Assembly (NCBI GenBank): GCA_951406725.2
Contig: OX597819.1
Span: 30,814,001-30,878,000 of the forward strand
Source: Octopus vulgaris
Lineage: Eukaryota
DNA length: 64,000 nt
Direction: 5' to 3'
Below the pieces are notes generated by a model. It worked only from the letters and a program-made list of their open reading frames with translations, had not been told where the DNA came from and made no database searches. This document shows positions 4,969 to 53,743 of this stretch, in pieces. Position 1 is the stretch's first letter, and each line of letters opens with the position of its first letter. The position numbers and the translations under genes were made by a program.

Positions 4969-7900
4969 TCAAGTACATAAACATCGAAATAAATATCAAA
5001 TGGAAATAGTAGTTGTGATACCTATGCCAGTGTCATGTAAAAAGCACCAACCGATCGTGGCCGCTGCCAGCCTCCCATGGCACCTGTGCCGGTGGCACAT
5101 AAAAAGCACCCACTACACTCACGGAGTAGTTGGCGTTAGGAAGGGCATCCAGCTGTAGAAACACTGCCAGATCAGACTGGAGCCTGGTGCAGCCTCCTGG
5201 CTTCCCAGACCCCGGTCGAACCGTCCAACCCATGCTAGCATGGAAAACGGATGTAAAAAAAAAAAAGAAAATATATATTCTACAGAAACAGTATTTAATC
5301 TGGTTCCTAATGTATAGGTACCAGATTAAATCCTGGAGATCAGTATAATTGACTAACAAAACAAAAAGAAAAAAATCCTTGAAGGCAGTGCTCTAGCACG
5401 GTCAGAGTCTAATAATTAAAATCAATAAATGATTGAGAGAATGTATTAGTAACTTACCATTTGAGATGATCAAGCATATGTAGAAGTATGTTATAATTGA
5501 CCTCAGGAAGAGAATGAATCAGGGAGATGAGTTCTTTTTCTTTCTGTTCAGGTTCTTTTATATCTGTTCAATGTGAAAAGAGACAGTGAGATGGAGACTG
5601 TTGCTGTTTTTATTCTAACATCCCACTGGATCAGCATTATTGTGTTGTTGTTATTACTATTGGATCTTTTCTGTTTTAACGGCAGTTTTTAACATAATTT
5701 CTAGGTAACTAAAAAAAATTTAAACTTCGTATACTGGTAGAATGTGTTTATAAAACATCTTTTTCTCTTGGCTTTATTGAGAAAGTTCTATAGTTTGTAA
5801 GATATTTGTTGTTTTTTTTCTTCAATTTCTGCAATTTCAACCAATCATTGACATCCATTGAGGTAAAAAAACATTCTGTGCCGTATGAATATGTCCCTCG
5901 TTTAAGAAACAGATTGGGTTTATTTACATTTATTTACATTTGTGAAGAAAAAAAGATACCCTTCCCCCACCCCTAACCGTAACCCTAAAACAGATTGAAA
6001 TGCAATAGATCAATACTAGGGTCATAATTATGGGTGACAATTTCATATGACACTGCTAGAAAAAACTGCTGTTCAAATCGAAAAAATCCTTATTATTTAA
6101 TTAAACATAAGTAATATCTTGTTCTATAATTTTTCCTAAATTTTTAAACTTAACAGCAATAATCCTGTTATTTTATCCACAATGTGTCACAAAGTCAAAG
6201 AGGATGAAACCCACTGGAGTATGCATGCATACATATATGTATTAACATCCATCTATATAACATACCATGATAGATGGTTCGATTCTAACAGAGTATATTT
6301 CTCCCACAATGAGAACAGATAGAAAAAAATCTCCATTTAGACTTTTCCATTGGGGAAAAAAATCATACCTGTGACAACTTTTATATCCAACTTAATGTGG
6401 ATGTCTTGTCAGAACACTAAATATTGCAGTATTAGCCTTGAGAGGTCCTCTCATATAGATGCATGGTGCATTAAAGCACAGGTATGAATCATAGCAAACG
6501 AGAATGGTCTATTATGATCTATGCTTTTATGCACCATGTGTCTATGTATTTGATGTTGGGTATAAAGATTGCTTTTTGGTACTAATACTGCCTCTGTTGC
6601 TAATAATTATTTTCATACCTGTGACTCATAAATAAGTATGACTGGTAGCATCTAAAATACTTTGGCCAATAGTTTTAAGTGTTAATAGTAGCATCTGTAA
6701 TACATTGATTGTGTAGTCATGGGCAGACATCAACACACACTCAACCTTCCACCATTTGGTGCAGTGGAGCATCCAGGATGAAACAGTTAGATAATGAAAA
6801 GGCTATACCCAATACAAGGCTGAGAAAACTGGAGCAAAATGAAATGGAGCACCTGGCCAAAGAGCACACTGCATCATCACATGGTGTAGCAATTGAACTC
6901 ATGATGTTATGATTAGGAATGTGTTGTGTGGACGCCCCCAGACGATGAAGTAGGCTAGCTCAATACGTAGATATAGAGGGAGAAGCCTAGACGTCAAAGA
7001 GAGAGCACAGTTGAGTAGCAGAGAACAGTTGAGTAGTACTGAGGTAGAACAGAGCGGAGTTGAGTGGAGTAGTAGAGGCGTCTGAACGTGCGACATAACA
7101 GACTGCAATACCCTAACCTCTAACCTGCACAGATTTTGATTGAAACAAGATATTTTAAAAAAAGATACTAAAATGGTTAGTTAGTATAACCACTGTATTT
7201 TAGCATGATTTTTCTTCATATAAACTGCAAATCAATTTGATTTGTTTACAATAATTTGAAAGATTCAGTTGGCTGAGTTATTGGAATTTGTCCTACCCTG
7301 CATTGCCAATACCTCTAACAAAAATGTTTAGTGACCTGTAGAGACACCATATTTTGTTATGCAACCCTAATATACAACAAGTATATTAAATCTTTATTAT
7401 TATTCAAAACTATATTCTGCTGTGTTACCAGTGCTATTACATCATTTCTTATGGTTATCTCTACAGATCTTCTATAGAAATTGTGGCCAGCACTGATTTT
7501 ACTACGTTGTCTCGTATTTGAGAAACAAGAATTATGAAAATTGGACAATGGGCAAATATGCATATTTCAGGAGCTTTTTAGGAGTGCTGGCTATAATTAC
7601 TATAGAAGATCTATAGAGAAAAACCTTAACAAAAAATGTTTAGCTCCAGTTGGCTCAAACAATTACTCCTTTAAGAATCATAAGACTTGTTAAATTGATT
7701 ATTAAAGTAAAAGGATGAAAGAAATACTTTAAACTTTAATGTTGGTATTTGAAATATACTTAGTGACTTACCAGAAATGCCAATAAATTTGTCATACAGA
7801 AGATTCGTAAATAATGGTTCAGGCAATTCTCTAAAGTAAAGTTTCAAAACAGCAGCAATTGTGTGAACACTACAGTCATTGTCTTCTACTATACGCCGGG

Positions 7901-19039: not shown

Positions 19040-19637
19040 TATGCAATAACATAATATATAAACACATATATGCATATATACATACATATATGTACATACC
19101 TACATCTATATGTATATATACATGCATATATGTACATACCTACATCTATATGTATATATACATGCATATATAGGTACAGGACATCAAAAAAACGTTGAAC
19201 ACAATGAGAAATGAAAACATAAAAACAAAACCAAGGAAATGGACATTTTTTTCAAACAACGAAAAAACAGAGTACAACTCAAGGAATATTCACCTTCTTC
19301 AGTTGTCCCTGTTTTGGATGTTCCGCGTTTCGAAGGTACGCGGAGTAGCCAAAACAGGTACAACTGAAGAAGGTGAATATTCCTTGTGTTGTATGTTTTG
19401 TACTCTGTTTTTTCGTTGTTTGAAAAAAGTGTCCATTTCCTTGGTTTTGTTTTTATGTTTTCATTTCTCATTGTGTTCAACGTTTTTTTGATGTCCTGTA
19501 CCCATATATGCATGTATATATACATATAGATGTAGGTATGTACATATATGTATGTATATATGCATATGCTTATATATTATTTTGTTATTATGTGACCGGT
19601 CGTCATGCATCCACTTCCAAGTGAGTTTTATCTATCT

Positions 19638-25061: not shown

Positions 25062-28000
25062 ACTAATGTTATCTTTCTTTACATGGCACGGATCATATGA
25101 AAATACAATGATATTTATAAGAGTGGTCCATACACACACGTTCAGTTATATAAACAGAAGACACAATACATACATTAGGAATATAACTGTAGTCATAATT
25201 ATGATTGCAGGAAACTCATTTAGAAGCAAGGAAGTTCTTTTATCTGTACCCCGGCCTTTGTATGTTTTATGCACCTGCTTCAACATATCGCTAATGGTTT
25301 TTTACAATAAAAGTTGTTGCTTGGCCCAGAGCAGCCCTATCCAGTAGACCGATAATCAGAAGCATTTCAGCCTTGCTTATCCTGTCTTATGTCTAGACAT
25401 AATATATCCAGACTACATTATCCAATATACTTGCTTTTTTTTTAAGATGATATGATATGATTTAAGAGAGATTTGGCAGCCATTTTTAACAGCTTATGTG
25501 ACCATGTAGTGTCTACCTCTTTTCTGTACAGTCAAACAAAATAGAATGGCATACTTATTATGAATGTGTTAAATAGTTTTAGAGTTTAGAGATTTAAAAT
25601 ATTTTAAAAGAGTACAAAAATGAAATAACAGATGGGTCAGAACTTACATTTATCTTTTAAAGAAATGATGGCTTCTTTCCATTCTTCACGGGAATAATTT
25701 GTAGACATCAATAAGGTATATACTTTTTTGCCATCTTTCAATTTAAACTCCAAGCTACCAGAAAGTCGTGCTATTTCTCGTTGCTAGATAATGAAAAATT
25801 GAAAATAAAACCATAATTATTAAAAAGCAATTTATTAATGAGCAGTGGTTTTAAATATGATATAGACACAGTAAATGTCGAGTGGGCACCATATAGGGTC
25901 AAGTGGGGAGGGATTGAGCACTTTGAGGAGTCGTAATTTTTATAAGAATAAATCAGTGAAACCAGGTATATACATTGTTCTAGGTTCAATCCCATTGCAT
26001 GACACCTCTACATAACAGCCCACTAACTATTCTACTCTACCTGTGTAAACTGTGGGTATGGGAGTATGATATCTACTATGTATATTTCCTATTTAGTATT
26101 GGGGAAGTTTCATTTATGAGGACATACTCCTGTATTTATCTGAGTGTTGGGTCCTTTGGGTGCTTGGATAAGATGCAGAGGTCAAGTTGACCCATGTTGC
26201 CTAAAGACATTATAAATTGTTCCAAATCATGCTGAAATTTGTCCTGATCAAAAGGTCTTTCTGTCAGGGAAGATATAATCTGACAAGAAATAAAGAAAAA
26301 ATGAAATAAAGGTATTCTATTATGAAAATTGCCTGGCAACAATAGGCTATTCAGTGTGTGTGTATGAGTGTGTGTATGTGTGTGTTGTGTTTGTCACCCA
26401 CCACCACCACCTAACAACTAGTGTTGGCTTGTTTATATTCCCATAACTTAGCAGTTCAGCAAAAGGGACCAATAGAATAAGTACCAGACTTAAAAAGTAA
26501 GTCCTGGGATTGATTTGATTGACTAAACCCTTCAAGGCAATACCCCAGCATGGCTACAGCCTAATGACTGAAACCAGTAAAAGATAAATAATAATAAATC
26601 AATTACTTGACTACACAAAAACCTTTGTGTTAACAACAGCTGCTACCATCAACACCTCCATTCAAAATGTCAATCTAAAAGCATAACATTGCTACACCTG
26701 GGAATTATATTAAACACTTTAATCACTACATACATTCTTGTCTACTCAAGTATATCTAGGCTCACTTACAAAAATCCTATTTATGTCTATACATACTGAT
26801 CTATATATATATATATTCAAAATGTGACCATGTGTGTACCGTTGGCAATTTTTTTCCTCTGTCTTCCCTTCTTTGGATTTTTCCTTTTCCTATGTCTCTG
26901 ACGAAGAGCTCCGCTCGAAACATTAAACCCTCCCTCTTTCCTTCCTTCCTGAGCGTCCAATAATACTATATTTGTTCTATATAGTATTATTGGACGCTCA
27001 GGAAGGAAGGAAAGAGGAGGGTTTAATGTTTCGAGCGGAGCTCTTCGTCAGAAACATAGGAAAAGGAAAAATCCAAAGAAGGGAAGACAGAGGAAAAAAA
27101 TTGCCAACGGTACACACACGGTCACATTTTGATATATATATATATATATATATAGATCAGTATGTATAGACATAAATAGGATTTTTGTAAGTGAGCCTAG
27201 ATATACTTGAGTAGACAAGAATGTATGTAGTGATTAAAGTGTTTAATATAATTCCCAGGTGTAGCAATGTTATGCTTTTAGATTGACATTTTGAATGGAG
27301 GTGTTGATGGTAGCAGCTGTTGTTAACACAAAGGTTTTTGTGTAGTCAAGTAATTGATTTATTATTATTTATCTTTTACTGGTTTCAGTCATTAGGCTGT
27401 AGCCATGCTGGGGTATTGCCTTGAAGGGTTTAGTCAATCAAATCAATCCCAGGACTTACTTTTTAAGTCTGGTACTTATTCTATTGGTCCCTTTTGCTGA
27501 ACTGCTAAGTTATGGGAATATAAACAAGCCAACACTAGTTGTTAGGCGGCGAGATGGCAAAGGCGGCGAGATGGCAAAGGCGGCGAGATGGCAGAAACGT
27601 TAGCGCGCCGGGCGAAATGCTAAGCGGTATTTCACCTGTCGTTACGTTGTGAGTTCAAATTCCGCCGAGGTCGACTTTGCCTTTCATCCTTTCGGGGTCG
27701 ATAAATAAAGTACCAATTTCGCACTGGGGTCGATGTAATCGACTTAATCCATTTGTCTGTCCTTGTTTGTCCCCTCTATGTTTAGCCCCTTGTGGGTAGT
27801 AAAGAAATATATATATATATATATATATATATATCTTTCCTGTCATTCTAAGAACTGCAGCCTTGGTTAGACACACTAAGGTGATCTAATCAGTCCATAG
27901 TTGTCCCCATACTTTTGAAGATCAGATACACTTTCCCCCTGACTTTATTCCATTTTTGATCAATTTCAATTCACTGTTTTGTTTGTTTTGTTTTTTTTTT

Positions 28001-32500: not shown

Positions 32501-35500
32501 AACATCATACATTCAAAGCAATGAGACCGGAAGGCTACATTATTATAGCCAATTTGCAGATGTTTTACTTCCTTTTAAAAAATGCATATTTTGTGAATGA
32601 AAAAAAACTAGATCCCCTAGTTCTTGTAACTAAACCCATAGCAGAATAAGAGAACAAATTACAGATGTAAAAACAAATGTAGAATTGAGAGGTCTGAAAG
32701 TGAACTTAGCAAATACTAAAGTTCTAGTAAATAGGAAAGAAGACAGTACTCTGCTATTATTGATGAAATGATGATGCTTGATATGCAGAAAGGAAGTAGA
32801 CAGAAATTCCATATGATGTACTCAATGTAAACAATGGACACATGAAAGATGTGTGATCACCGGCAGGCTAATAGAGAAGATAGACTTTGTATATGGCAGA
32901 TGCTCAGGAGCAGTAAGCACTAAGAATGCACATGAAACAGATTTCCTCAAATGCCTGGAAGGCTCACTAGAAGTAGTTAATGGCTTTTGTTATGTAGGTG
33001 ACCTAATTAGCAGTGGAGATGGATGTTCCAAAATAATAGTAACCAATGAAAGAATTATGTGGAATGGTTAATGTGAGAGCTATGAACAGACAATATGATA
33101 GGAGACAACACAAATGAATTGAGAGTGCTCGAATGGAGGTGACACAAGATCAGCTGGCTTGGAGGCACAGAGGTCATTGTAGGAGCATGGAAGGCATAGA
33201 GAGGAGACACCATCATGCCTGTGGGTCAGAGGTTAGAGTATATCTGTTAGTGATTTCACAACAATCAATCAGGCAATATTTCATGTTATGTGGTCTTAGA
33301 TTTATGTGTGTATAGCAGGAAGATTTTTCCACATGTGGAAGCAATATTTCATTGCTGAGCTCTGTAAAAGCTTGATAGTTATTGAGAAACTGAAGAATAA
33401 AGTCAGTCTTTGCTATGTCACACTTTGCTGGAGAGTAAAGAAGACTGCGAGAAAGAAGAGACCAAAGCATTTGAACTCTTACTGGAATTTTTCTATGGAC
33501 TAATAACTAAAGCAGATCATCACCCACTGTCTTACATTCCTGATTTTACCAAATTCTATAGCTAATCTATCAGGACTTTTATAAACATTCATTTGTAACT
33601 TGTCTATCTTGGCTTAAAAACAAAACTGTGGAATCTGAACTTACTCTGTTTCGTAATTCTGTTTCTATACTGCTCATTCTTTTCTTTAATTCGTCGATGG
33701 TTTCTGTAAACTTATAATTTGTTTCTGCAATGAAGAAATAGAAAATTTTAAGAGGAATTATATAGAAGAGTAGTTGATGAAAGTGAAATGATGGTTTATA
33801 TACCAGTCTCTTTTGTATATATTGTGAGGTTAAAATTGTCATAAGCTACAGAGAACTGGTCCATCTTCAACACCTGAGCCTGCTAGCCAGCCAGCTTGCT
33901 GTTTGTCTTTGTGTGTGTACGTGTGTGTGTACGTGTGTGTGTGTGTGTGTGTGTGTGTGCATGCATGCTCTTTATATTTCTTTTATATAACACACACATA
34001 CACACACACGTATAATGGACTCTCTTGTTGATTTCAACATTCAAGGGTCTGACAGCATAGTTTTAAACTTTTGTTTTAGTTCTGCTGTCTATGTCTCTTA
34101 TGAGACTTTAATGCAGCCAAAAGTTTAAAGTCAAGTCCACAGATAAGACATAAGAATGGATTATATTGGACTGGATTGACTATGTTCAGTCCACTATAAG
34201 ATGGAGGCCTCTGCATGTTCTCTCCATCAACCACAGTCTAGTGTGCAGGCTGCAAAACTGAGTCTGAGACCATACAGGTTTGATGAGCCTACTCTGTCAC
34301 ACTGGGTTGACATGGCTTGGCAGAGGGTTGCAGTTTTTAAACTCTTATCCACAAGCAGTTACGTTGATTACATTGACCTCATTTCTCAACTGGAACTTTT
34401 TTTATCAACCCAAAAAGGATGAAAGGCAAAATTGACATAGGAGGAATTTGAACTTGGAACATAGGGATAAATGAAATAACACTAAGAATTTTGCCTGGCA
34501 TGCTAACATATATGTATACACTGCATACCACATTATTTGGGAAATCAACGTCTTCTCAATAGATAAAAGCATATTCATTCAAAACCAGTTGTTTTCCCAC
34601 TGACTGTTGGCAACACCTATCTGTGCACATTCTGTTCACTGACAAATGCCTGCTACTCTTGACAGACCAGATGGCTGGAGTAAAGCTTGGGTATCCATCA
34701 GCAGGAACCATCCTCATCATTTGAGACGCCAACAGGGTGGGGGCGAGGTGGGGGTCATACTTTGGGCTGGCATCGTTGATGGTATGATGGTTGGGCCATG
34801 GAAAGTCCCAGATGGCATTAAGGTGACATCGAAAACATATGTTACCTTCTTAAAGGACAATTTCCAACCATGGTTCAGAAAGCAAAAACTTTCATTTAAG
34901 AGAAAGCTGGTCTTAGTGCAAGATAATGCCCCATCACATGCAGTGAAGATTTCTGAGGAATACCTGCAGCAAATATGCTTCTCTGGAGGTCGCTTGATGG
35001 AGTGGTCACCTTGTTCCCCTAAAACCCAAATGAGAACCTGTAGATTGTCCTGAAGAGGCATGTTTACCAAAATGGACAGCAGTCTCCAAGTAAAGCTTCC
35101 ACCTGGGATGCTATTGTAGATGCTGTTCAAAGCATGACACAAGAGGATATCATCACCTTGACAAATTTAATGGATCAGCGCTTAAGCAAGGTTATTGCAT
35201 GTGGAGGATCATACATCAAACATTAAGAGCTGTATGACATCATAATCACATGATTATTTCAATTCCAACATATTATTATGTTTAACATTAAGTCCTTTAT
35301 GAATAACTTTTTTGTTAAACCTTTACTGTTGAACTAAATAAATGTTTGTTCTGATACAATTACCATTTTTGTTATTCTTGCCTAATAATTTGTGACGGTG
35401 AAAATGTTGCCCAATCATAAAAATGGTGCCATTTGTTGGCCTGCTGGTTGGAGATGCCTATCTAGCTCTTGTAAACATATAAGAATTCTAGTGAAATAAA

Positions 35501-38500
35501 TCCACTGATTATAAAAATAGAAATAATACATTTATAAATATCTCAGAGAGATTTATGCAGTAGCGGTATGATAGAGTAGTTGCATACTGTCAACTTAATG
35601 TGACAGGCCATGCTACTCCAGACTGATGACGAGCAAAGACTCAGAAACTAGTCTCTGGTTGCAGGCTTAGCTGGGTGGAGGTGCTTATCTCTCCCTTGTA
35701 AACATAAGTACACAGGAAATGTGTCAAGGCCGACAGAAAGCATTGATGCTTCCTAGGGCTAAATAGCAGTGGTGTGATTCCCTTCATGAGACTGTCACAT
35801 TAAGTTGACAGTATACAACTACTCTATCATATCACTACTGCTTATATCTCTCTGAAATATTTAGAAATGTAATATTTCTATTTTTGTAATCAGTGAATCT
35901 ATTTCACTAGAATTCTTATATGTTTACAAGAGCTAGATGGACATCTGCAACTAGCAAGCCCGACTGATGACAAGCAAAGACTCAGAAACTAGTCTCTGGT
36001 TGCATGCTTAGCTGGGTGGAGGTGCTTATCTCCCCCTTGTAAACATAAGGACACAGGAAATGTGTCAAGGCCAACAGGAAGCATCACAAAAAAAAAAAAA
36101 CAGTTTTACATTAACCTGAAGGATTATTCAATACTTTTTGTAAAGTACATATTTATTACAATTTTACAGGAGTAGTGCTACACACACACAGTGGGGAGGG
36201 ATTATGATTTTGGGGGATGAGTAAATAAACAACAAAGAAACTGGAATGGAAAAGTTGGGGAGAGAAGTTTTAAGGATCAGATGTGAGACAATCAGGTTAG
36301 AAGACAATTTCACAAGGGAATGACATAACTGATTAAAATAAAAAGAAAAGACAGGAAGTAGAAGGAAAACAGTTAATAAATTGACAAAGTTGGAAATGAG
36401 AGAGAGAGGGGGGGGTTAATATAAGTAGGAAAAAAAAAGGGGGATTGGGATTAAAACAACTGATTTATAAGATTAAAGAAAAAATGAGTAATTAGATTAA
36501 AGAGAAATATTGTTTTAGCATTATATAACCATTTGAGAGCAAACATAAAGAGTGAAGCTATAGTATTGGGTGACCAACCAAGAGATCAACAATTTATATC
36601 TTGTCATTAACAATATTTCATGTCAATGACTAACATTTTTAGCTCTGAAATGACCTACTCTGCCTTACTATGAAGAGGTAACATAGGAATGACACAGTTT
36701 TTTGTAGCAACTTTGTGCTATTGGCAGTGTCAATGGCAACTGTGTTATAAACATTGACAAGCATTTTGTTGACTTGCAATGTTTAGTTCAATTATGCTAG
36801 ATACACTACACAGATTGGGGAAAAAAAAGGGAAATAGAAAGGGAGATTAGTTAAATGGAGTGAGAAAAGAGGTAAATAGATTGGAGAATAGACAAATAGG
36901 TTAACCCTTTAGCATTTAAACTGACTATATCAAGCCAAAATATTCTGTTTTATGTTGAACCTGGCAAGTTCTGGCCTCTCACACCTATCCTGCTATGTCA
37001 TTATAAAAAAAAAACTGTCAAATCATTGAAATCTTGAAGCTACAAGATAATCCATGTTTAATTCAAAACAATATGAATGAATAAGCATTACATTTGACAG
37101 AATAATCTGAATGTTAAAAGCTTAATCCTTTTTATCAACCGGGCTGAAACCAGCTTTGGCTCTGTAGTACAAATGTCTTGTTTTCATAAGCTTTGAATTA
37201 AAATTTTCCACCAAACCTTAGTCACAATTTATGTTCCTAACACTAGCTGAAAGATAACTAAGTTATTTTACTAAATTCTTTGTTATATTTAAAGTAATTG
37301 AAACAAACACAGAGCATCTCAAAATTAATACAGTAACAAAAGGGTTAAAGTTATGGGAGACAAGATAATTATACACTAGGGCACAAAACATGGTTAAAAG
37401 ATATGAAATTAGATTGTAAATCAATTAGTGAGGAAAATAACAAACCAACTGCAGGCAATATGAAGACATACAACAAGGATTTTCTCCTACAAATAAAGCA
37501 GATGTGAAGAATATTTACCTGCTCTATGATCTGTACTGGAATGAAATTCAAGCTTGTGTATTGGAATGAACCATTTAACATCAAATGAATCTTTTTGGCT
37601 GAAAGATATAAATAGATTCATCATGCTCATCATTACCGACATCAAAAATATCACTACCCCTTCTCTCTAGAGAGAGAGAGAGAAGAGGGAAGAAGAGGAT
37701 GAGAATAAGAGAAACATTAAATGTCCAATGCCAAATAAGTGAGTGTTGAATCAGGGATACTAAAACAACCCTGTCAAAATGTCTCATGTCCTACATATAG
37801 CATTTGTATGCGTGGCTGTGTGGTAAGAAACCTGCTTCACACCTACACAGTTCTAGCTTCAGCCTCATGGCATGGCACCTTGGACAAGTGTCTTCTTCTA
37901 TAGCCTCAGGATGACCAAAGCTTTGTGAGTGGATTTTGTAGACAAAAACGGAAAGAAGCCCATCATATATATGTATATATCTATGTGTGTGTGTCTTTGT
38001 GTCTGTGTTTGCCCCTCTCCCCGCCACCATCACTGCTTGACAACTGGTTTTGGTGTGTTTACATCCCTGTAACTTAGTGGTTCAGCAAAAGAGACTGATA
38101 GAATAAGTACTAGGCTTTAAAAAATTAAGTCCTAGGGTCAATTTGTTAGACTAAAAACATTCAGAGCGGTGCTCCAGCATGGCCACTACAAACGACTGAA
38201 ACAAGTAAAAGAACAAAAGAATATCTATCTATTTAACACTTTATCAATTTATGAAAGTAAACAACACTATTATTATGTACCATTTCATCTCATGAGTCAA
38301 TTCTTGCAAATATCTGGACATAAAAAGAGGAATCAGCCAGACTTGTTTCAATTCTGCATTAAGATTTCATCAGTGACTGAGTATCTACATTTTTTTTGTC
38401 TATCTACAAATAAACTGCATGTAAAAACAAACTGTTGACATTTGTCTATATTACACAGTGTTAACTAAGTTACAATTATGGTCCCTTGTATAGTATAACA

Positions 38501-38916: not shown

Positions 38917-41900
38917 AGGAAGAAGAGAAATCTAGAAAACCAGTGCTTTTAAACAAAATCCCTACTGCTAATTGTTCTGTATGGTCTTAATGACACTTCC
39001 TTATTCTCGTGGTCAGAAATATAGAAATACAGTGAACCAGTCTATTGGAAACCTGTAACAGTCAACAGCACCACTGATCAATTACAATATTAAATAGATA
39101 TAAGAAAAAAAGAATATTACTTACTAGAACTTTTGTTTGGTACAAACAATCACATCACTAAACAGAAAGAAACAACGTAGTTTTCTGGCATTGTTACTGA
39201 GCAATTCTACAAGATGTTCAGCCTTCAGAAGATAATGGTCATTCTCTACCTGTAATATAATATTCGTTAGAAATAATTTAGATTTTTATAAAGGTGCAGA
39301 TGTGGCTGTGTGGTTAAGAAGTTTGCTTCCCAACCAGAGTTAGTACTGGTCGAGAACTAGTGAAATGAAATCCTCTCTCCCTTCAATGCTCATATTGAAC
39401 TTATTCTGCTGGATCAAAGGTGAGAGGATTAAGAGAGTGTCTATTTTTGCTCACAACTACATAGGGACTGAAAACCAATTAGTGAAAGAAAGGTACAAGC
39501 TACCATGTCATACTGACTTGCATGTGACAGCTATGGTGTAACAATATATGGTCTAAGAATAATTCTCATTTACTGGTAGTGATTTTTTCAGGTTATTTCT
39601 ATAAATACTTAAAATCTGTTCAAATTTTTGATGTTTTAATTCACAACATATAGACATCATTTTTGTTGCCAACATTATCATCATTATTATTTTTTCACAT
39701 CCTCTTTCTATGTTAGCATGGACTGGACAGTTCAAATAAGATCTAACAGAGCAGAGAACCACATCTTTTTCCAGTGCCTCAATTTGGACATGGTTTCTAT
39801 GGTTGGATGCCCTTTCTAATACTAAAACTTTACTGAGTAGACAGAGTACATTTTCCATGGCATCAGTACTAGTGAGGTTGTTTTGTGACTCACAAAACTA
39901 AAGAAATCCCTTTACTGAGAAAGAGAAGAATTGAAAGGGAAAAAGCTTTATGTGAGGTGTCTTGAGGGCTTCAAGAATGAGAGTAGAGACAAGAACAGTT
40001 TGTTGTTGGTGAAGAAGATTCATGACTATCATGCATTATATATGAGCTAGTGGGAGCGGATGAGGTCGAACAGGAAAGAGAGATTAGAATTTAGAAATTC
40101 TATTTTATTTTGCTAAAGAGATAGAAGCAGCATTTAAAAAAAAGTATCAAATTATATGTATTTACGCATAAAAATAAAATAATTTCTTTCTGTCCTAAAT
40201 ATTGCAGGCAAAAAAATTTTTTTATTTACAATTATATAAACACTTCTTTTAAACACTTCTTTTAAAAACTTCTATTTGAAACATGCTTGTAAACCACACA
40301 TGATACGTTGTAGCTAAGATGGAAAGTAGAAATATAATTACTTATGGTTTTATGGTATTAACATTTTTACAGGAAGGAAATAATTTATTTCTTTCCAGGA
40401 AATTAAATAATCTATTGAAAATGATAACTAAATAAATATGCTTGTCAATAGTTCCAGAGTTGAATTTGTAATACTTAGCAATATGGCCATTTCTTAATCA
40501 GAAATATAACTACTTAAAGTAGACAATATTCCCAAAAAAGTCAATAAAAATAGTAACATCTTCTAAAAACAATTTTTATTTACATTTTAAGTAGAACACT
40601 AAGTCATTTTTTGTTTAAAGGCAACATTATCAATAGTATTTATCAAATAAATAAAATTAAAGCACAAGAAAACTTTTCTACTGGAAGGAAACAGTTTATT
40701 TCTATTCAGGAAATTGAATAAGCTATTGAAAATGATAAATTAATAAAAATAGATATACATGCCAATGGTCCTAGAGTTACTTGGTATCTATGAAAAATAC
40801 TTAGCAAATATGGCCATTTCTTGATCAGAATTGATTATTTTGATTAAGACTTAATTGATGTGGATGGTAGATGAAAGTTACAGCTGTGGCTCTTAAAGTT
40901 ATGGCATAAACAACCCACCTAGGTGACATGTTCATTCCAAATTACAAACAATTAAATCAGGACCAAAAGGTTAGGGCTGGAGATAATTCTTAGTGCAGTG
41001 GAAGAAGCTGTTCAGTGTTGGTATCGCAATAAAACCTCTTTGTAAAGTTTGTTGGCTGGTGGTAGGCCTTACATATTACCAAGTTTAACATTGCCACTGG
41101 GTTCTTGTGTGCCTTTAATAAAAGTTCTCTCTGTTAGGGTTTGGTTGAAGGCTAAGTGTTCAAACCAGATCCTCTATTCTCTCCTTGCTCCCATTTTAAC
41201 TGCAGATGTTCAGACTGGACATCAACCACACCAGTTCAGTCTAACCAATCCAGGGCGACCAATACATGTTCAGTTTAGACACTGGCTGCATCACTCTCAC
41301 CAGTCTAAGGTGGCCTACAGATGTTCAGGTTGACCATACTACACACCAATCTCACTGTCTGGATGACATTCAAAGGTCATGTAAATTACCTCCACTTCTC
41401 CAGGTTAACTTACATAAAAATATAGGATTGCACCTAGAAAGTTATCTTCTGAGGTACAAGCCTGGGAAAGTTTGTTTATGAAAGACCAGCAGTCACTCGT
41501 GCTTACCAGCCTCCCTTCACCACACCACTGATGTTATCCAAGGGAAAGGCAAAGGCCGATACAGCTTGGCACCAGTGACATTGCAACTCATTTCTATGGC
41601 TGAGTGAACTGGGGCAACATGAAATAAAGTGTCTTGCTCAAGGACACAACACACAGCCTGATCCAGGAATTGAACTCACTACCTCATGATTGTGAGCCCA
41701 ATGCTCAAACACTGCGCCTTGTGCCTTCATATAAAAACATTAAGACCAAAGTAACAGATACTGAGCATTAAAAAAAAATCTATAAAGCCTATCTAAAATG
41801 ATGTTCCTTTTTACTAATACTTATATTCATAAGTATTAGTAAAAAGTATTAGTAATAACAGAAAAAAGTATTAGTAATAACAGTAATAACAGAAAATCAT

Positions 41901-51719: not shown

Positions 51720-53322
51720 TGTGTGTGTGAGTGCAAGCTTAAAACCATGCAGTTTTGAGTCTGACCAATGCTTTGAGTAGAATTGGTAGATGAAAACTGT
51801 ACGGAAACCACAACCTCTGCTATCAGCATTTATTTGAATATTTAATCACCTGTGTTTCCTACTTGATGCAAATACATCACGAAAATCCAAATTAACAGCA
51901 GTATTCATCCAGAAATAATATCTCCTATGGATGTACAGCGTTAAATAACACAAATACATAAGTAGCAGACAAAACTCATCCAGCAGCAGTAGTGAGAAAG
52001 CTAGGTGCGCATTTCAGCCTCATTGGGCTTTGTCAGTAGTATATAACTACTAGCAACCAACTGAATTATTTAATATTTATTTATCTACTCTGTGGAGGTG
52101 CAATGGCCCAGTGGTTAGGGCAGCAGACTTGCGGTCGTAGGATTGCGGTTTCGATTCCCAGACTGGGCATTGTGAGTGTTAACTGAATGAAAACACCTAA
52201 AGCTCCACGAGGCTCCGGCAGGAGATGGTGGTGAACCCTGCTGTACTCTTTCACCACAACTTTCTCTCACTTTTTCTTCCTGTTTCTGTTGTACCTGTAT
52301 TTCAAAGGGCCAGCCTTGTCACATTCTGTGTCATGCTGAATCTCCCCAAGAACTACGTTAAGGGTATACGTGTCTGTGGAGTGCTCATCCACTTGCACGA
52401 TAATAGATGAGCTGCGATGTCACTGATGCCAAGCTGTATCGGCCTTTGTCTTTCCCTTGGATAACATCGGTGGCATGGAGAGGGGAGGCTGTTATGCATG
52501 GGCAACTGCTGGTCTTCCATAATCAATCTTGCCCAGACTTGTGCCTCGGAGGGTAACTTTCTAGGCGCAATCCATGGTCATTCATGATCGAAGGGGATCA
52601 CAATTTATCTACTTTATATCACAACTGGTGAACAATAATGCATTGGTTACAGGTTTTCAATGGGATAATAATTGGTTTATTGATGATGAAGCTAATGAGG
52701 AATTGTCTAGTACTATGTAGAACGAATATCTTCAGAGACTTCATGTGTAAAGCAGTTTTTTTGTTTGACATTAATCTTTATATACTTCACCAACACACAT
52801 CAGGGAAAAACACATACATATACACAGTTTCTTTCAATAAAATTTCCTTCATAAGGCATTGGATCAACCTGAGACTAAGGCAGAAGATATTTACACAAAG
52901 CACCATGCAGTGAGATCAAATTCATGGTTGCAAAGCAAACTTCTTTATCATACAACTATGCCAGTACCCACCAGAAACAAAAGTCTTTCACAGCCTACTA
53001 ATCCCTTCCATAATAACTATTATCCCTATAAATGGAAATGGAAAATCAAAGTTTATCATTTTGTTTATGTAACAGTTATTATCAAAGTAATGTAGCAAAA
53101 TAGATTACAATAACAATAAAATTATTTAATAAATAAATAAAATTTTAACTAAATTTTTTAAAAATCAATAGAAACCTTTTCTAAATGCTCTAAGTATTTG
53201 ATAAAAGTTTCTTCTTGTGCCAGAAATCCTCGAATGGCTCGTTCCCTCATCTTTAGTAAATTGGCATCATCTGCTGATTCTTCATACTCTCGAATAAAGT
53301 CATATTCCGGTAAGATATTTTC
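3982..53322 (-). CDS. ABR: BCR/ABR-family RhoGEF(DH)-PH-C2-RhoGAP gene, 22 coding exons (about 758 aa); N-terminus uncertain
   Basis: Manually spliced GT-AG exons join in frame. DH (EETFIKYLE...IFSNVPKI...LLQKP...[12 protein letters not shown]), PH ([17 protein letters not shown]...KWFIPI...REEWKEAI), C2 ([15 protein letters not shown]...[12 protein letters not shown]), RhoGAP (GVFGVD...GIYRVSG...[12 protein letters not shown]...[13 protein letters not shown]). This domain order is diagnostic of BCR/ABR. Confidence 0.93.
5458..5563 (-). CDS. ABR: ABR/BCR exon (RhoGAP)
   Basis: cag|...|gtaag, 106 nt; [36 protein letters not shown]. Confidence 0.9.
5661..6090. mobile_element. Non-autonomous DNA element with about 30-bp TIRs
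   Basis: ggatcttttctgttttaacggcagttttt / aaaaactgctgttcaaatcgaaaaaatcc; internal ccctaaccgtaaccctaa. Confidence 0.65.
6905..7100. mobile_element. Possible solo LTR
   Basis: TGTTATG...CATAACA termini, composition distinct from flanks; no clear TSD. Confidence 0.4.
7772..7912 (-). CDS. ABR: ABR/BCR exon (RhoGAP)
   Basis: 141 nt; [46 protein letters not shown]. Confidence 0.92.
8502..8579 (-). CDS. ABR: ABR/BCR exon (RhoGAP arginine finger)
   Basis: 78 nt; [26 protein letters not shown]. Confidence 0.92.
9170..9560 (-). mobile_element. Degenerate RTE LINE 3' fragment
   Basis: Minus frame EKRLCWYG-like RTE C-terminal motif with stops. Confidence 0.5.
9652..9713 (-). CDS. ABR: ABR/BCR exon (RhoGAP start)
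   Basis: 62 nt, cag|...|gtatgt; [21 protein letters not shown]. Confidence 0.88.
9911..10139. mobile_element. TTAA-flanked piggyBac-like MITE, family 1
   Basis: ttaa-cccttttgttac ... gtaacaaaaggg-ttaa; second copy at 37122-37348. Confidence 0.8.
10945..11173. mobile_element. TTAA-flanked MITE, family 2
   Basis: ttaa-ccctttagc ... ggg-ttaa; copies at 36901-37125 and 59087-59312. Confidence 0.75.
12991..13100 (-). CDS. ABR: ABR/BCR exon (C2 end and linker)
   Basis: 110 nt; [37 protein letters not shown]. Confidence 0.9.
14265..14830 (-). mobile_element. R4/Dong-like non-LTR retrotransposon 3' fragment (RLE domain)
   Basis: [27 protein letters not shown], followed by NRPGIV and [12 protein letters not shown]-like motifs; abuts (ATT)n. 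Confidence 0.65.
15673..15726 (-). CDS. ABR: ABR/BCR exon (C2)
   Basis: 54 nt, phase 0/0; [18 protein letters not shown]. Confidence 0.82.
16720..17250 (+). mobile_element. Full-length tRNA-derived SINE, family A (internal TA/TG microsatellite)
   Basis: ggagtggctgtgtggtaag...gggttcagtccc head, gactgaaacaagtaaaagag tail; other copies at about 4360-4795(-), 15860-16200(-), 22470-22815(-), 37810-38220, 60985-61390. Confidence 0.85.
18200..18975 (-). mobile_element. Penelope-like retroelement 3' remnant (GIY-YIG C-terminus, pyrimidine-rich tail, terminal hammerhead-like motif)
   Basis: [22 protein letters not shown]...QELIF resembles the PLE endonuclease C-terminus (HF...HS...E.LIF...GLN); motif CUUU-CUGUUGA-AGAGC(AUAG)GCUU-GAAA-UG-UA-AAAG at 18267-18302. 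Confidence 0.6.
19045..19590. repeat. About 540-bp imperfect palindrome (centre 19329-19337), Penelope-terminus-like
   Basis: Mirror ORFs 19184-19525(-) and 19195-19491(+); contains ctgaagaagg and cttcgaaacgcg; microsatellite flanks. Confidence 0.9.
19872..20068 (-). CDS. ABR: ABR/BCR exon (C2)
   Basis: 197 nt; [65 protein letters not shown]. Confidence 0.93.
20256..20469 (+). repeat. (GAA)n microsatellite, about 71 uninterrupted units
   Basis: Direct reading. Confidence 0.98.
21773..21844 (-). CDS. ABR: ABR/BCR exon (C2 start); tandem AAG/TAG acceptor, so the boundary may be 21841
   Basis: [23 protein letters not shown]; gtaag donor. Confidence 0.82.
22290..22326 (-). CDS. ABR: ABR/BCR small exon (PH-C2 linker)
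   Basis: 37 nt, cag|...|gtaaac, phases 0/1 fit neighbours; [12 protein letters not shown]. Confidence 0.75.
23075..23350 (-). mobile_element. RTE-clade LINE 3' end
   Basis: [23 protein letters not shown]...RWNKEWLEI, ending in (caagt)n. Confidence 0.7.
24253..24314 (-). CDS. ABR: ABR/BCR exon (PH-C2 linker)
   Basis: 62 nt; [20 protein letters not shown], gtaggt donor. Confidence 0.8.
25648..25783 (-). CDS. ABR: ABR/BCR exon (PH C-terminus)
   Basis: 136 nt; [45 protein letters not shown]. Confidence 0.88.
26894..26928 (+). ncRNA. Hammerhead-like motif in left arm of palindrome (decayed stem III)
   Basis: GUCU-CUGACGA-A GAGC(UCC)GCUC-GAAA-CA-UU-AAAC. Confidence 0.5.
27021..27055 (-). ncRNA. 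Hammerhead-like motif in right arm of palindrome
   Basis: Minus strand GUUU-CUGACGA-A GAGC(UCC)GCUC-GAAA-CA-UU-AAAC; stem I intact. Confidence 0.5.
27544..27810 (+). mobile_element. SINE family C (MetaSINE-like core) with triplicated 17-bp 5' end
   Basis: (aggcggcgagatggcaa)x3, gagttcaaattcc B box, gtcgactttgcctttcatcctttcggggtcgataa core; copies near 10290-10770, 14885-15270, 17780-17970. Confidence 0.8.
29010..29400 (+). mobile_element. Repeat family B (RTE-associated tail with internal tandem units, ending in (GAT)n)
   Basis: gccggtggcacgtaaaaagcacc units, ggaagggcatccagctgtagaaac, catgctagcatggaaa; copies at about 5005-5255, 24350-24820 (inverted pair), 45865-46080(-), 47290-47595, 56830-57345. 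Confidence 0.8.
29654..29722 (-). CDS. ABR: ABR/BCR exon (PH insert)
   Basis: 69 nt, strong pyrimidine tract plus tag; [23 protein letters not shown]. Confidence 0.78.
30545..33075 (+). pseudogene. Degenerate RTE-type reverse transcriptase, split by an insertion
   Basis: [43 protein letters not shown] motifs with many stops. Confidence 0.7.
31398..32614. mobile_element. TIR-bounded insertion within the RT, just after the YxDD motif
   Basis: gatctagtctttctcttttgcaaaatg / catattttgtgaatgaaaaaaaactagatc; RT resumes on the far side. Confidence 0.6.
33645..33724 (-). CDS. ABR: ABR/BCR exon (PH insert, coiled-coil-like)
   Basis: 80 nt; [27 protein letters not shown]. Confidence 0.85.
34646..35400 (+). 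mobile_element. Tc1-like transposase C-terminal remnant
   Basis: [32 protein letters not shown]; frameshifted. Confidence 0.8.
35618..35658 (+). ncRNA. Minimal type-I hammerhead ribozyme motif (copy 1)
   Basis: CCAGA-CUGAUGA-C GAG(CAAAGA)CUC A-GAAA-CUAG-UC-UCUGG: 5-bp stem I, intact core, palindromic stem III, GUC triplet (cleavage after 35653). Confidence 0.75.
35959..35999 (+). ncRNA. Minimal type-I hammerhead ribozyme motif (copy 2, slightly decayed)
   Basis: CCCGA-CUGAUGA-CAAG(CAAAGA)CUCA-GAAA-CUAG-UC-UCUGG; extra mismatches in stems I and II. Confidence 0.6.
36901..37348. mobile_element. Two adjacent TTAA MITEs (families 2 and 1) sharing one TTAA
   Basis: Similarity to 10945-11173 and 9911-10139; junction ttaa at 37122-37125. 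Confidence 0.75.
37519..37598 (-). CDS. ABR: ABR/BCR exon (PH)
   Basis: 80 nt; [26 protein letters not shown] (BCR-like KWYIP motif). Confidence 0.87.
37810..38220 (+). mobile_element. SINE family A copy
   Basis: Colinear with 16720-17250. Confidence 0.8.
38701..38851. repeat. 150-bp imperfect palindrome
   Basis: taaggttaccattggcttcatgttaagaaaatatc ... gatattttcttaacatgaaaccaatggtagcctta; next to (CA)n(TA)n. Confidence 0.85.
39125..39249 (-). CDS. ABR: ABR/BCR exon (PH start)
   Basis: 125 nt; [41 protein letters not shown]. Confidence 0.92.
42690..42797 (-). CDS. ABR: ABR/BCR exon (DH C-terminus)
   Basis: 108 nt; [36 protein letters not shown]. Confidence 0.9.
44426..44941. mobile_element. 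pogo/Tc2-like MITE
   Basis: ta-ccgtaaatcctcgagtata ... tatacttgaggatttatgg-ta TIRs with TA TSD. Confidence 0.8.
44988..45040 (-). CDS. ABR: ABR/BCR exon (DH)
   Basis: 53 nt; [17 protein letters not shown]. Confidence 0.85.
45632..45674 (-). CDS. ABR: ABR/BCR exon (DH)
   Basis: 43 nt, phase 0/1; [14 protein letters not shown]. Confidence 0.78.
46677..47136 (+). mobile_element. tRNA-derived SINE with hammerhead-like tail and inverted duplication of its body
   Basis: A box tagtggttaag (46872), B box gagttcgattcc (46910); arms 46675-46851 and 46922-47101; flanking direct repeat aagtctgttcca at 46665 and 47137. Confidence 0.75.
47011..47054 (+). ncRNA. Hammerhead-like motif (core C3 to U)
   Basis: AUAC-UUGACGA-A GGCUG(GAGGGUAUAU)CAGCC-GAAA-CG-UU-GUGU. 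Confidence 0.55.
47792..47899 (-). CDS. ABR: ABR/BCR exon (DH)
   Basis: 108 nt; [36 protein letters not shown]. Confidence 0.88.
48088..48265 (-). mobile_element. Second copy of the same Penelope-like terminal repeat
   Basis: Similar to 18195-18365; ctgttgaagagcataggctcaaaatgtcaaag at 48170-48204; next to (TA)n. Confidence 0.55.
49600..50305 (-). mobile_element. Tc1/mariner-superfamily (maT-like) transposase remnant
   Basis: [20 protein letters not shown] motif. Confidence 0.8.
50500..50685 (-). CDS. ABR: ABR/BCR exon (DH)
   Basis: 186 nt; [62 protein letters not shown]. Confidence 0.92.
51040..51320. repeat. AT-rich inverted repeat (arms about 110 bp)
   Basis: caccttttatcaattcaaaatgaa...ccatctag paired with ctagatggtg...ttcattttgaattgataaaaggtg. 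Confidence 0.85.
52090..52602 (+). mobile_element. tRNA-derived SINE, family D, with 11-bp TSD
   Basis: tggcccagtggttagg A box, ggtttcgattcc B box; TSD atttatctact at 52079 and 52603; related pieces at 41480-41725(-) and 58345-58660(-). Confidence 0.8.
53176..53322 (-). CDS. ABR: ABR/BCR exon (DH start)
   Basis: 147 nt; [49 protein letters not shown]. Confidence 0.9.
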
Positions 53323-53743
53323 CTGAATCAGAAAAGAGAAAAACTTTGGTGAAGACAAGAATTTTTTTTAAAAAAAGGCATGAAAGAAAGAAAAAAAATT
53401 AAATAAGCTTCATTTTTATATTTGGTTGACAAGATTCTTGAGGTAAATTTGTGTGTTGAAACCAAATTATGTGTCTTGGGAAGGTCGTTATGCCAATAAT
53501 AATAACACGTGCAAAAGAGCAAAAAACATTTCAACTGGGAATCTGATAGGGAGAGCAACACTGGGCAAATATGGTGTTTTGCACCTTTTACCATAAGAGA
53601 CAATTTTTTTTTTCCCATGGTAACTACAATGAATTAGTTTTTTCTGAAGTTGAAATATTTCACAAACATATTCTAATTAACCTAAAGGTTGCCTTTGTCT
53701 AAACACTGCTTGGTGCTGATACTGCTGTGTATGAAAACATACA

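Follow-up and report, generated by a model that had tools for sequence, protein, structure and literature searches.

The window analysed here is a 64,000-nt stretch of the Octopus vulgaris genome (contig OX597819.1, positions 30,814,001 to 30,878,000 of the forward strand) that contains an insertion with two hammerhead ribozyme sequences. We consider it probable that this insertion represents a decayed copy of a hammerhead repeat of 350 nt that is dispersed through the genome, likely a retrozyme copied by Penelope-like element (PLE) machinery; intact dimers of this repeat are predicted to cleave themselves, while the window copy likely yields no circle. An earlier sequence-only reading had taken the element to be non-coding, of a retrozyme-like or PLE type, and its minimal hammerheads to be of the dimer type, a description supported by the family, its insertion ends and its conservation.

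Both hammerhead cores are present as that reading had placed them. CUGAUGA lies at 35623 and 35964, each time inside a direct repeat of 126 nt (94% identical), the GUC sites at 35653 and 35994 are 341 nt apart, and the palindrome ACUAGU occurs in both copies. Hammerhead 1 (35618..35658, +) is intact, with a 5-bp stem I, CUGAUGA, an extra C, a 3-bp stem II with a 6-nt loop, an extra A and GAAA; its palindrome occupies 35647-35652 and the predicted cut falls after 35653. Hammerhead 2 (35959..35999, +; predicted cut after 35994) is damaged: its core and palindrome (35988-35993) are intact and its stems are broken. The two copies had been given an equivalent stem I, CCAGA/UCUGG, which holds for copy 1 but not for copy 2, where CCCGA leaves a C-U mismatch. 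Furthermore, the first pair in stem II of hammerhead 2 is broken by an A in place of G.

Copies, ends and insertion targets

A DNA search of the genome (2.8 Gb, 227 contigs) returned 3214 first-look candidates, 40 of which were scored; the best matches were 81-96% identical. An exact 35-letter hammerhead motif gave 70 genome matches (control: 0) and a looser motif 810 (control: 3, with at least 19 of the first 100 matches listed being unrelated repeats); as these numbers are far above those of the controls, the hammerhead family is more than chance. In natural tandems the unit recurs every 350-351 nt; it is non-coding with 39% G+C. Dimers and trimers occur, and copies that extend upstream of the hammerhead continue into the unit itself (L002, L003, L005-L008). 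The 341-nt monomer of the sequence-only reading therefore stands for the window locus, the only place where this spacing was found, and not for the family; 10 nt are missing directly before hammerhead 2. There are three subfamilies (A, B and C), of which B and C were sampled as sister subfamilies at approximately 70-84% identity. Eighteen further loci (L101-L118) that share the core and the ACUAGU palindrome were set aside as older, unrelated repeats. Several of these repeats carry a TATA-like word approximately 60-80 nt upstream.

Sixty loci were mapped: 30 were the best DNA matches, a choice biased toward long copies, and 30 were the first motif matches, biased toward intact ribozymes. After five duplicates were dropped, 88 segments in 55 loci remained. 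With units numbered from the first C of stem I (u1), 57/88 segments have their 3' end in one of two 10-nt bins, 32 at u201-210 and 25 at u261-270. The 5' ends are scattered, with 18/88 at u331-350. Head-to-head inverted pairs were found in 30/55 loci, and a microsatellite adjoins 31/71 fixed 3' ends versus 2/28 free 5' ends (background: 0.146). As marks of PLE insertion, PMC8557442 gives partial tandem copies, an inverted copy truncated at its 5' end, a one-sided tail and a bias toward microsatellites. Based on the fixed 3' ends, the inversions and the microsatellite targets, PLE machinery is the likely mobiliser. Subfamily A copies had no common flank outside the unit. Many of their 5' ends fall at u339-345, 7-13 nt upstream of stem I, next to unrelated flanks (e.g. 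L003, L005, L008, L011 and L066); this cluster might reflect the start of transcription or a point where reverse transcription tends to stop.

Units within a locus diverge by 7.1% and have 40% of their non-majority letters in common (36 pairs, including those of L005 and L007, which are apparently local duplicates), as compared to 10.0% and 12% for units of different loci (1314 pairs). This likeness is compatible with a single template per locus, which could be a circle but also a homogeneous tandem parent. Insertions cross the cut site and are often longer than a unit, which leaves an uncut tandem RNA or a religated circle as the likely template. In the proposed mechanism, the PLE enzyme would nick microsatellite-rich DNA and complementary DNA (cDNA) synthesis would start at u209 or u263 and cross the ribozyme junction, which again calls for an uncut or religated template.

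Conservation of the ribozyme and predicted cleavage

Conservation and covariation across the family, proposed by the sequence-only reading as a check on the ribozyme, bear it out: all 27 ribozyme letters are kept and the adjoining helix covaries. Subfamilies B and C were picked on sequence outside the ribozyme, with 25 loci from each. The majority letters of the core, stem I and stem III proved identical in A, B and C at 27/27 positions, as compared to 124/168 in the body. The core is intact in 17/23, 10/16 and 13/17 of the ribozyme-reaching rows by subfamily. Copy 1 and all three subfamily majorities have the CUGAnGA, GAAA and UH core with stems I and II, and ACUAGU is the majority sequence in all three. 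The unpaired base after A9 (u13) is C, U or A depending on the subfamily. Where minimal hammerheads have the pair G10.1-C11.1 directly before G12, a G-C pair is kept in 22/23, 15/16 and 13/17 rows, yet one extra base follows it, and the letters flanking this pair are C/A, U/U or A-U by subfamily.

In each of the three subfamilies, a long helix extending stem I joins sequence from either side of the ribozyme. Its covariation was scored on 31 natural ribozyme-spanning stretches (the window and 30 others picked by flank motifs, a choice that favours the presence of both arms). Compensatory changes in the distal helix comprise A-U to U-A in 14 rows, an exchange of G-C and A-U in 11 and U-A to A-U in three; 93% of the cells pair, and the covariation score was reached by 0/500 shuffles.

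As the stem III palindrome cannot close alone, activity would need two copies, as in PMC4209133. In the proposed mechanism, a tandem transcript would form a long rod linking the 3' strand of ribozyme 1 with the 5' strand of ribozyme 2; the rod would bring the two palindromes together into a double hammerhead, and cleavage would free a unit-length RNA that might be ligated into a circle. Folding of the natural dimer L006 gave a probability of 0.94 for the swapped stem and 0.93 for palindrome pairing, and its double-hammerhead fold lies +2.6 kcal/mol over the minimum (+7.9 kcal/mol with its 3' end). Intact natural dimers thus plausibly cut themselves, as far as such folding models predict. PLE hammerheads were reportedly found to cleave as dimers in a 2017 paper.

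Autonomous Penelope-like elements in the genome

The genome contains a young autonomous PLE (L121-L153, e.g. L151:3670-6006; 15283 first-look candidates) with intact open reading frames (ORFs) of 778 aa. It has two fixed 3' ends approximately 155 nt apart and (TA)n targets, an insertion anatomy like that of the hammerhead unit. No canonical hammerhead was found after its ORF, and the 778-aa protein was not recognised by Pfam; its assignment is based on motifs identified by eye, on insertion anatomy and on relatives bearing PF26215, which we take to be a PLE-associated family. The relatives of one local PLE include an argonaut protein. A second autonomous PLE belongs to an older family with a cysteine-rich linker. 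The third (L234-L263) is young and bears a hammerhead: 150/150 scored matches are 100% identical over 123 aa, and 29/30 loci have a minimal hammerhead approximately 110-130 nt before the 3' end. Unlike that of the unit, this hammerhead has a core starting with U and the palindrome AACGUU. PLE fragments near L083, L097 and L070 were considered as a partner of the unit and judged to be separate insertions.

Alternative explanations

Several observations weigh against a PLE-copied, self-cleaving retrozyme. First, insertion ends almost never lie at the cut site (3' ends: 1/88, at u31-40; 5' ends: 0/88), so nothing in the insertion data shows cleavage. Second, as to the ribozyme itself, stem II has only 3 bp and GAAA is preceded by an extra base; minimal hammerheads cleaved weakly in vitro (PMC4209133), and 1/9 Xenopus dimers cleaved (bioRxiv 10.64898/2026.07.22.740005). 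The predicted fold also depends on context, as the double hammerhead of L005 lies at +7.3 kcal/mol and at +17.8 kcal/mol with longer flanks. Third, u41-100 is also well kept (51/60), which makes the contrast between ribozyme and body moderate, and the compensatory changes represent only about three evolutionary events on the three-subfamily tree. Fourth, no autonomous partner emerged: the three autonomous PLE families (30 loci each, from a genome that holds more PLE families than these) have no DNA similarity to the unit beyond one 16-nt AT-rich word. Finally, a direct tandem of two hammerheads occurs in only 1/30 motif-picked loci, and the window copy is atypical, running inverted through u171-344 and then forward from u338 to u120 with neither fixed end present.

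The disregard of insertion ends for the cut site would suit a hammerhead that is a vestige and never cleaves, its sequence being kept as a protein-binding or promoter signal. PMC8557442 calls the role of PLE hammerheads unclear and describes some PLEs as thriving without them. A vestige of this kind is unlikely, if deserving of some weight, because the catalytic bases, stem I and the palindrome are all kept while the stem II loop changes between subfamilies, and because one stem II pair of subfamily C is A-U in five and G-C in five of 17 rows (four are mismatched).

The scarcity of direct tandems bears on another possibility: that the family consists only of the 5'-truncated 3' ends (pseudo-long terminal repeats, pseudo-LTRs) of an undiscovered autonomous PLE, the 350-nt tandem being a by-product of partial tandem insertion. 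Most genomic PLE hammerheads are solitary remnants of truncated elements (PMC4209133), and the 29/30 motif-picked loci without a direct hammerhead tandem, together with the 18/88 5' ends just upstream of the ribozyme, point the same way. This is nevertheless improbable. Copies extending upstream run into the unit again (L002, L003, L005-L008) and the long helix spans both sides of the ribozyme in three subfamilies, while no same-strand remnant of a PLE ORF was found directly upstream of the unit in L001-L120. Nor does an ORF with reverse transcriptase (RT) and GIY-YIG endonuclease lie between the repeats; the unit directly follows itself. A retrozyme copied by PLE machinery is the reading that we prefer.

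LINEs joined to the unit

In several copies, the 3' end of a long interspersed nuclear element (LINE) is joined to the unit at about u330-335, approximately 20 nt upstream of the hammerhead. These LINEs have an L1-group RT and a CCHC ORF1; the best solved match is human L1 ORF2, and relatives carry PF03372, PF00078 and PF13966. A search with LINE sequence only (which includes the four loci that prompted it) found that the LINE 3' end is followed by the unit in 12/30 and 18/23 of the copies that reach it (30/53), nearly all at the u330-335 site. In several other copies the same target word comes next and then a further LINE, and in a subgroup of the first set of 30 copies other sequence follows the 3' end. 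At least two L1-group lineages end at the site (L338 on the minus strand, L094:1290-3680, L344 and L324-L343), with tandem re-insertions, and some of the unit-ending LINEs are short ORF1-only forms of approximately 1.9 kb. When 20 LINE loci were viewed over 9 kb, the upstream half of the unit preceded the LINE in five (L324, L331, L338, L339 and L342), three had an inverted PLE-type head, then the LINE, then the unit (L327, L340 and L341), and 12 had no upstream unit. Target words are duplicated at L094, L338 and L344; at L344, which belongs to the subfamily of the window copy, the LINE site is shifted to u342-u5. The locus L081, considered as a longer element with a gag-like ORF between two hammerheads, was rejected as such in favour of LINE insertion based on the target duplications and tandem LINEs.

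The 30/53 junctions might suggest that the family is moved in the manner of a short interspersed nuclear element (SINE) by L1-group LINE machinery, the junctions reflecting that partnership. In the window copy, moreover, the inversion has its outer end where the forward part starts, and the right end carries an A-run, an arrangement seen in L1 twin priming. We find this origin decidedly improbable: the unit has two fixed internal 3' ends, whose neighbours are microsatellites or unrelated DNA and not poly(A) tails, and the LINEs sit on the upstream side of the unit, with target words duplicated (L094, L338 and L344), as would be expected if the unit were a target and not a passenger. We read the junctions as site-specific insertion followed by re-mobilisation of the composites, although template switching could make some of them. 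Since composites are re-mobilised, the junction counts do not represent independent events.

PLE copying of the retrozyme could be one step in a three-tier chain of parasites, a tentative extension that we hold to be possible and somewhat doubtful. PLE machinery would copy a religated hammerhead circle with a rod-organised double ribozyme, LINEs would target the upstream side of the ribozyme and ride along via the PLE, and the hammerhead would trim LINE read-through. A religated circle as template would account for inserts longer than one unit and for ends that disregard the cut site. If this is true, LINEs would have evolved specific insertion beside a retrozyme ribozyme.

Organization of the window copy

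The forward part of the insertion (35604..36084, +) spans approximately 1.4 units, from u338 through u120 of the next unit, and the usual 3' end of the family is absent. It is preceded by an inverted head (35437..35609, -; u171-u344) that has no hammerhead and that meets both the forward part and the Tc1 flank via short shared words. The inverted upstream copy described by the sequence-only reading is thereby confirmed (35438-35606, 169 nt, 91% complementary to 35792-35960), as is the complementarity of monomer start and end (35670-35706 versus 35919-35955, 73% over 37 nt). The latter two segments are the arms of the long helix. The downstream arm (35670..35706, +) extends stem I and pairs with 35919-35955, with compensatory changes between subfamilies; the 3' part of the upstream arm (35919..35955, +), together with the next bases, corresponds to the LINE-ending site of other copies (approximately u330-345). 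The stretch between the fixed 3' ends u209 and u263 of the family (approximately 35826..35880, +; a tail of approximately 54 nt) is internal here. From cut to cut the monomer measures 341 nt (35654..35994, +), with 39% G+C and a rod-like predicted fold (z = -3.9, as compared to -8.1 for a natural monomer). The copy carries 6-8 non-majority letters per 126 nt. An Rfam search at E-values up to 1 detected neither hammerhead copy and gave only microsatellite-driven microRNA matches. Contigs from four sequencing runs, three of them presumed to be RNA, contain pieces resembling the family, none of which covers the whole stretch, and are uninformative about expression, strand or circles.

Because the stems of hammerhead 2 are broken and the double-hammerhead fold is costly (+17.4 kcal/mol), the window locus likely frees no monomer. 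A half-ribozyme with the catalytic strand of copy 1 would be the sole workable one, cutting at 35994 at most. The 341-nt circle suggested by the sequence-only reading is therefore not upheld for this locus, where the inverted head would also sequester the unit (+149 kcal/mol), and from the modelled folds circle release is unlikely. Transcription of the locus with release of a 341-nt circular RNA via both hammerheads is a highly improbable account, since against the intact cores, palindromes and GUC sites, the rod-like monomer and the circles yielded by animal retrozymes (PMC7229834) stand the broken stems, the cost of the fold with or without the inverted head, the load of non-majority letters and the lost family 3' end.

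Genomic setting

The window has a G+C content of approximately 30-40%. A Tc1/mariner remnant lies at the left junction (34508-35440; annotated feature 34630..35440, +), and past the insertion this remnant has lost its right terminal repeat. A search with this remnant gave 144 first-look candidates, the best other copies being 85-91% identical; these run on into the right terminal repeat, which is absent in the window, so that a target duplication of the insertion is unreadable. On the right, the flank (36096-36170) starts partway into a different repeat family; the absence of the upstream part of that family suggests that sequence was deleted at this junction.

Exon frames of a host gene lie on the minus strand: a PH domain frame at 39127..39285 (-), for which the best solved match is BCR, and a RhoGAP frame at approximately 7773-7886 (-). 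These place the element, by inference, in an intron of a BCR/ABR-like gene and support the antisense orientation to the host gene given by the sequence-only reading. A frame at 53161-53367 (-) resembles by eye a RhoGEF (DH) exon of the same BCR/ABR-like gene and has no Pfam match. Given the antisense orientation of the element, cutting of the host pre-mRNA is not expected; nothing points to a function of the window copy in the host gene, and this copy is likely inert. Elsewhere in the window, 26407-27549 is a near-perfect inverted repeat (410 nt at 100%, with an inner 117-nt pair at 98%) and 19108-19567 contains another (170 nt at 98%). Both are possibly young foldback or PLE-type inverted insertions.

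Comparison with known systems

The sequence-only reading knew of no description of this family. In literature searched on hammerheads with octopus, cephalopods or Tx1 (with few subscription papers covered, and Repbase and Dfam outside its scope), neither the family nor LINEs that target retrozymes were found; the kind of element, on the other hand, is known (PMC4209133, PMC7229834, bioRxiv 10.64898/2026.07.22.740005). The family is thus new and its class is not, being that of the animal non-LTR retrozymes, which are proposed to be non-autonomous PLEs. The family bears on which enzyme moves animal retrozymes and on what hammerheads do in PLEs: it displays PLE insertion marks directly, its avoidance of the cut site poses the choice between uncut tandem and religated circle, and its natural intact dimers provide material for cleavage assays. 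With LINEs at a fixed site beside a ribozyme, the known targets of site-specific retrotransposons would gain one of a new kind. The value for follow-up lies in the PLE insertion marks and the targeting LINEs, not in the window as a circle producer. Tx1L, for its part, inserts into another transposon. In coleoids, expansions of both L1-Tx1 and Penelope elements have been described (PMC8967140).

Animal non-LTR retrozymes and their circles were described by Cervera and de la Pena in 2020 (PMC7229834), and Li, Clavereau and Pollet in 2026 presented retrozymes as non-autonomous PLE derivatives in 31 vertebrates, three insects and one coral (bioRxiv 10.64898/2026.07.22.740005). As consulted here, these papers name no cephalopod. 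Like the unit, the elements in these two papers are non-coding, approximately 300-350 nt in length and below 45% G+C, with one type I hammerhead each; like the family, they occur as dimers, trimers and dispersed monomers and co-occur with PLEs. Their hammerheads are canonical, whereas those of the octopus family are minimal. Most copies of the family, unlike described retrozymes, are shorter than two units with PLE-type ends and inversions, and the family is known here from DNA alone. As for mobilisation, the evidence here is direct and anatomical, while the papers infer it from co-occurrence and sequence trees.

The minimal hammerheads of PLE pseudo-LTRs share with the unit a short stem I, an extra base after A9 and a palindromic stem III that requires a dimer (PMC4209133). 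The unit differs from these in its 3-bp stem II, the extra base before GAAA and the covarying helix of approximately 30 bp that extends stem I. The family shares with PLEs its partial tandems, inverted 5'-truncated copy, one-end tail and microsatellite targets (PMC8557442). Unlike the PLEs of these sources (PMC4209133, PMC8557442), however, the unit has no RT-endonuclease ORF, and its tail is approximately 54 nt rather than 30-40.

The unit-ending LINEs resemble the target-specific LINEs of the Tx1 clade with an apurinic/apyrimidinic endonuclease (APE) in their L1-group ORF2, CCHC ORF1, fixed multicopy site, target duplications and tandem re-insertion (PMC4640811). In contrast to those described there, their target is a hammerhead retrozyme and some of the composites have apparently moved again with PLE-type ends; the affinity shown for these LINEs is to the L1 group, with Tx1 as a candidate placement.

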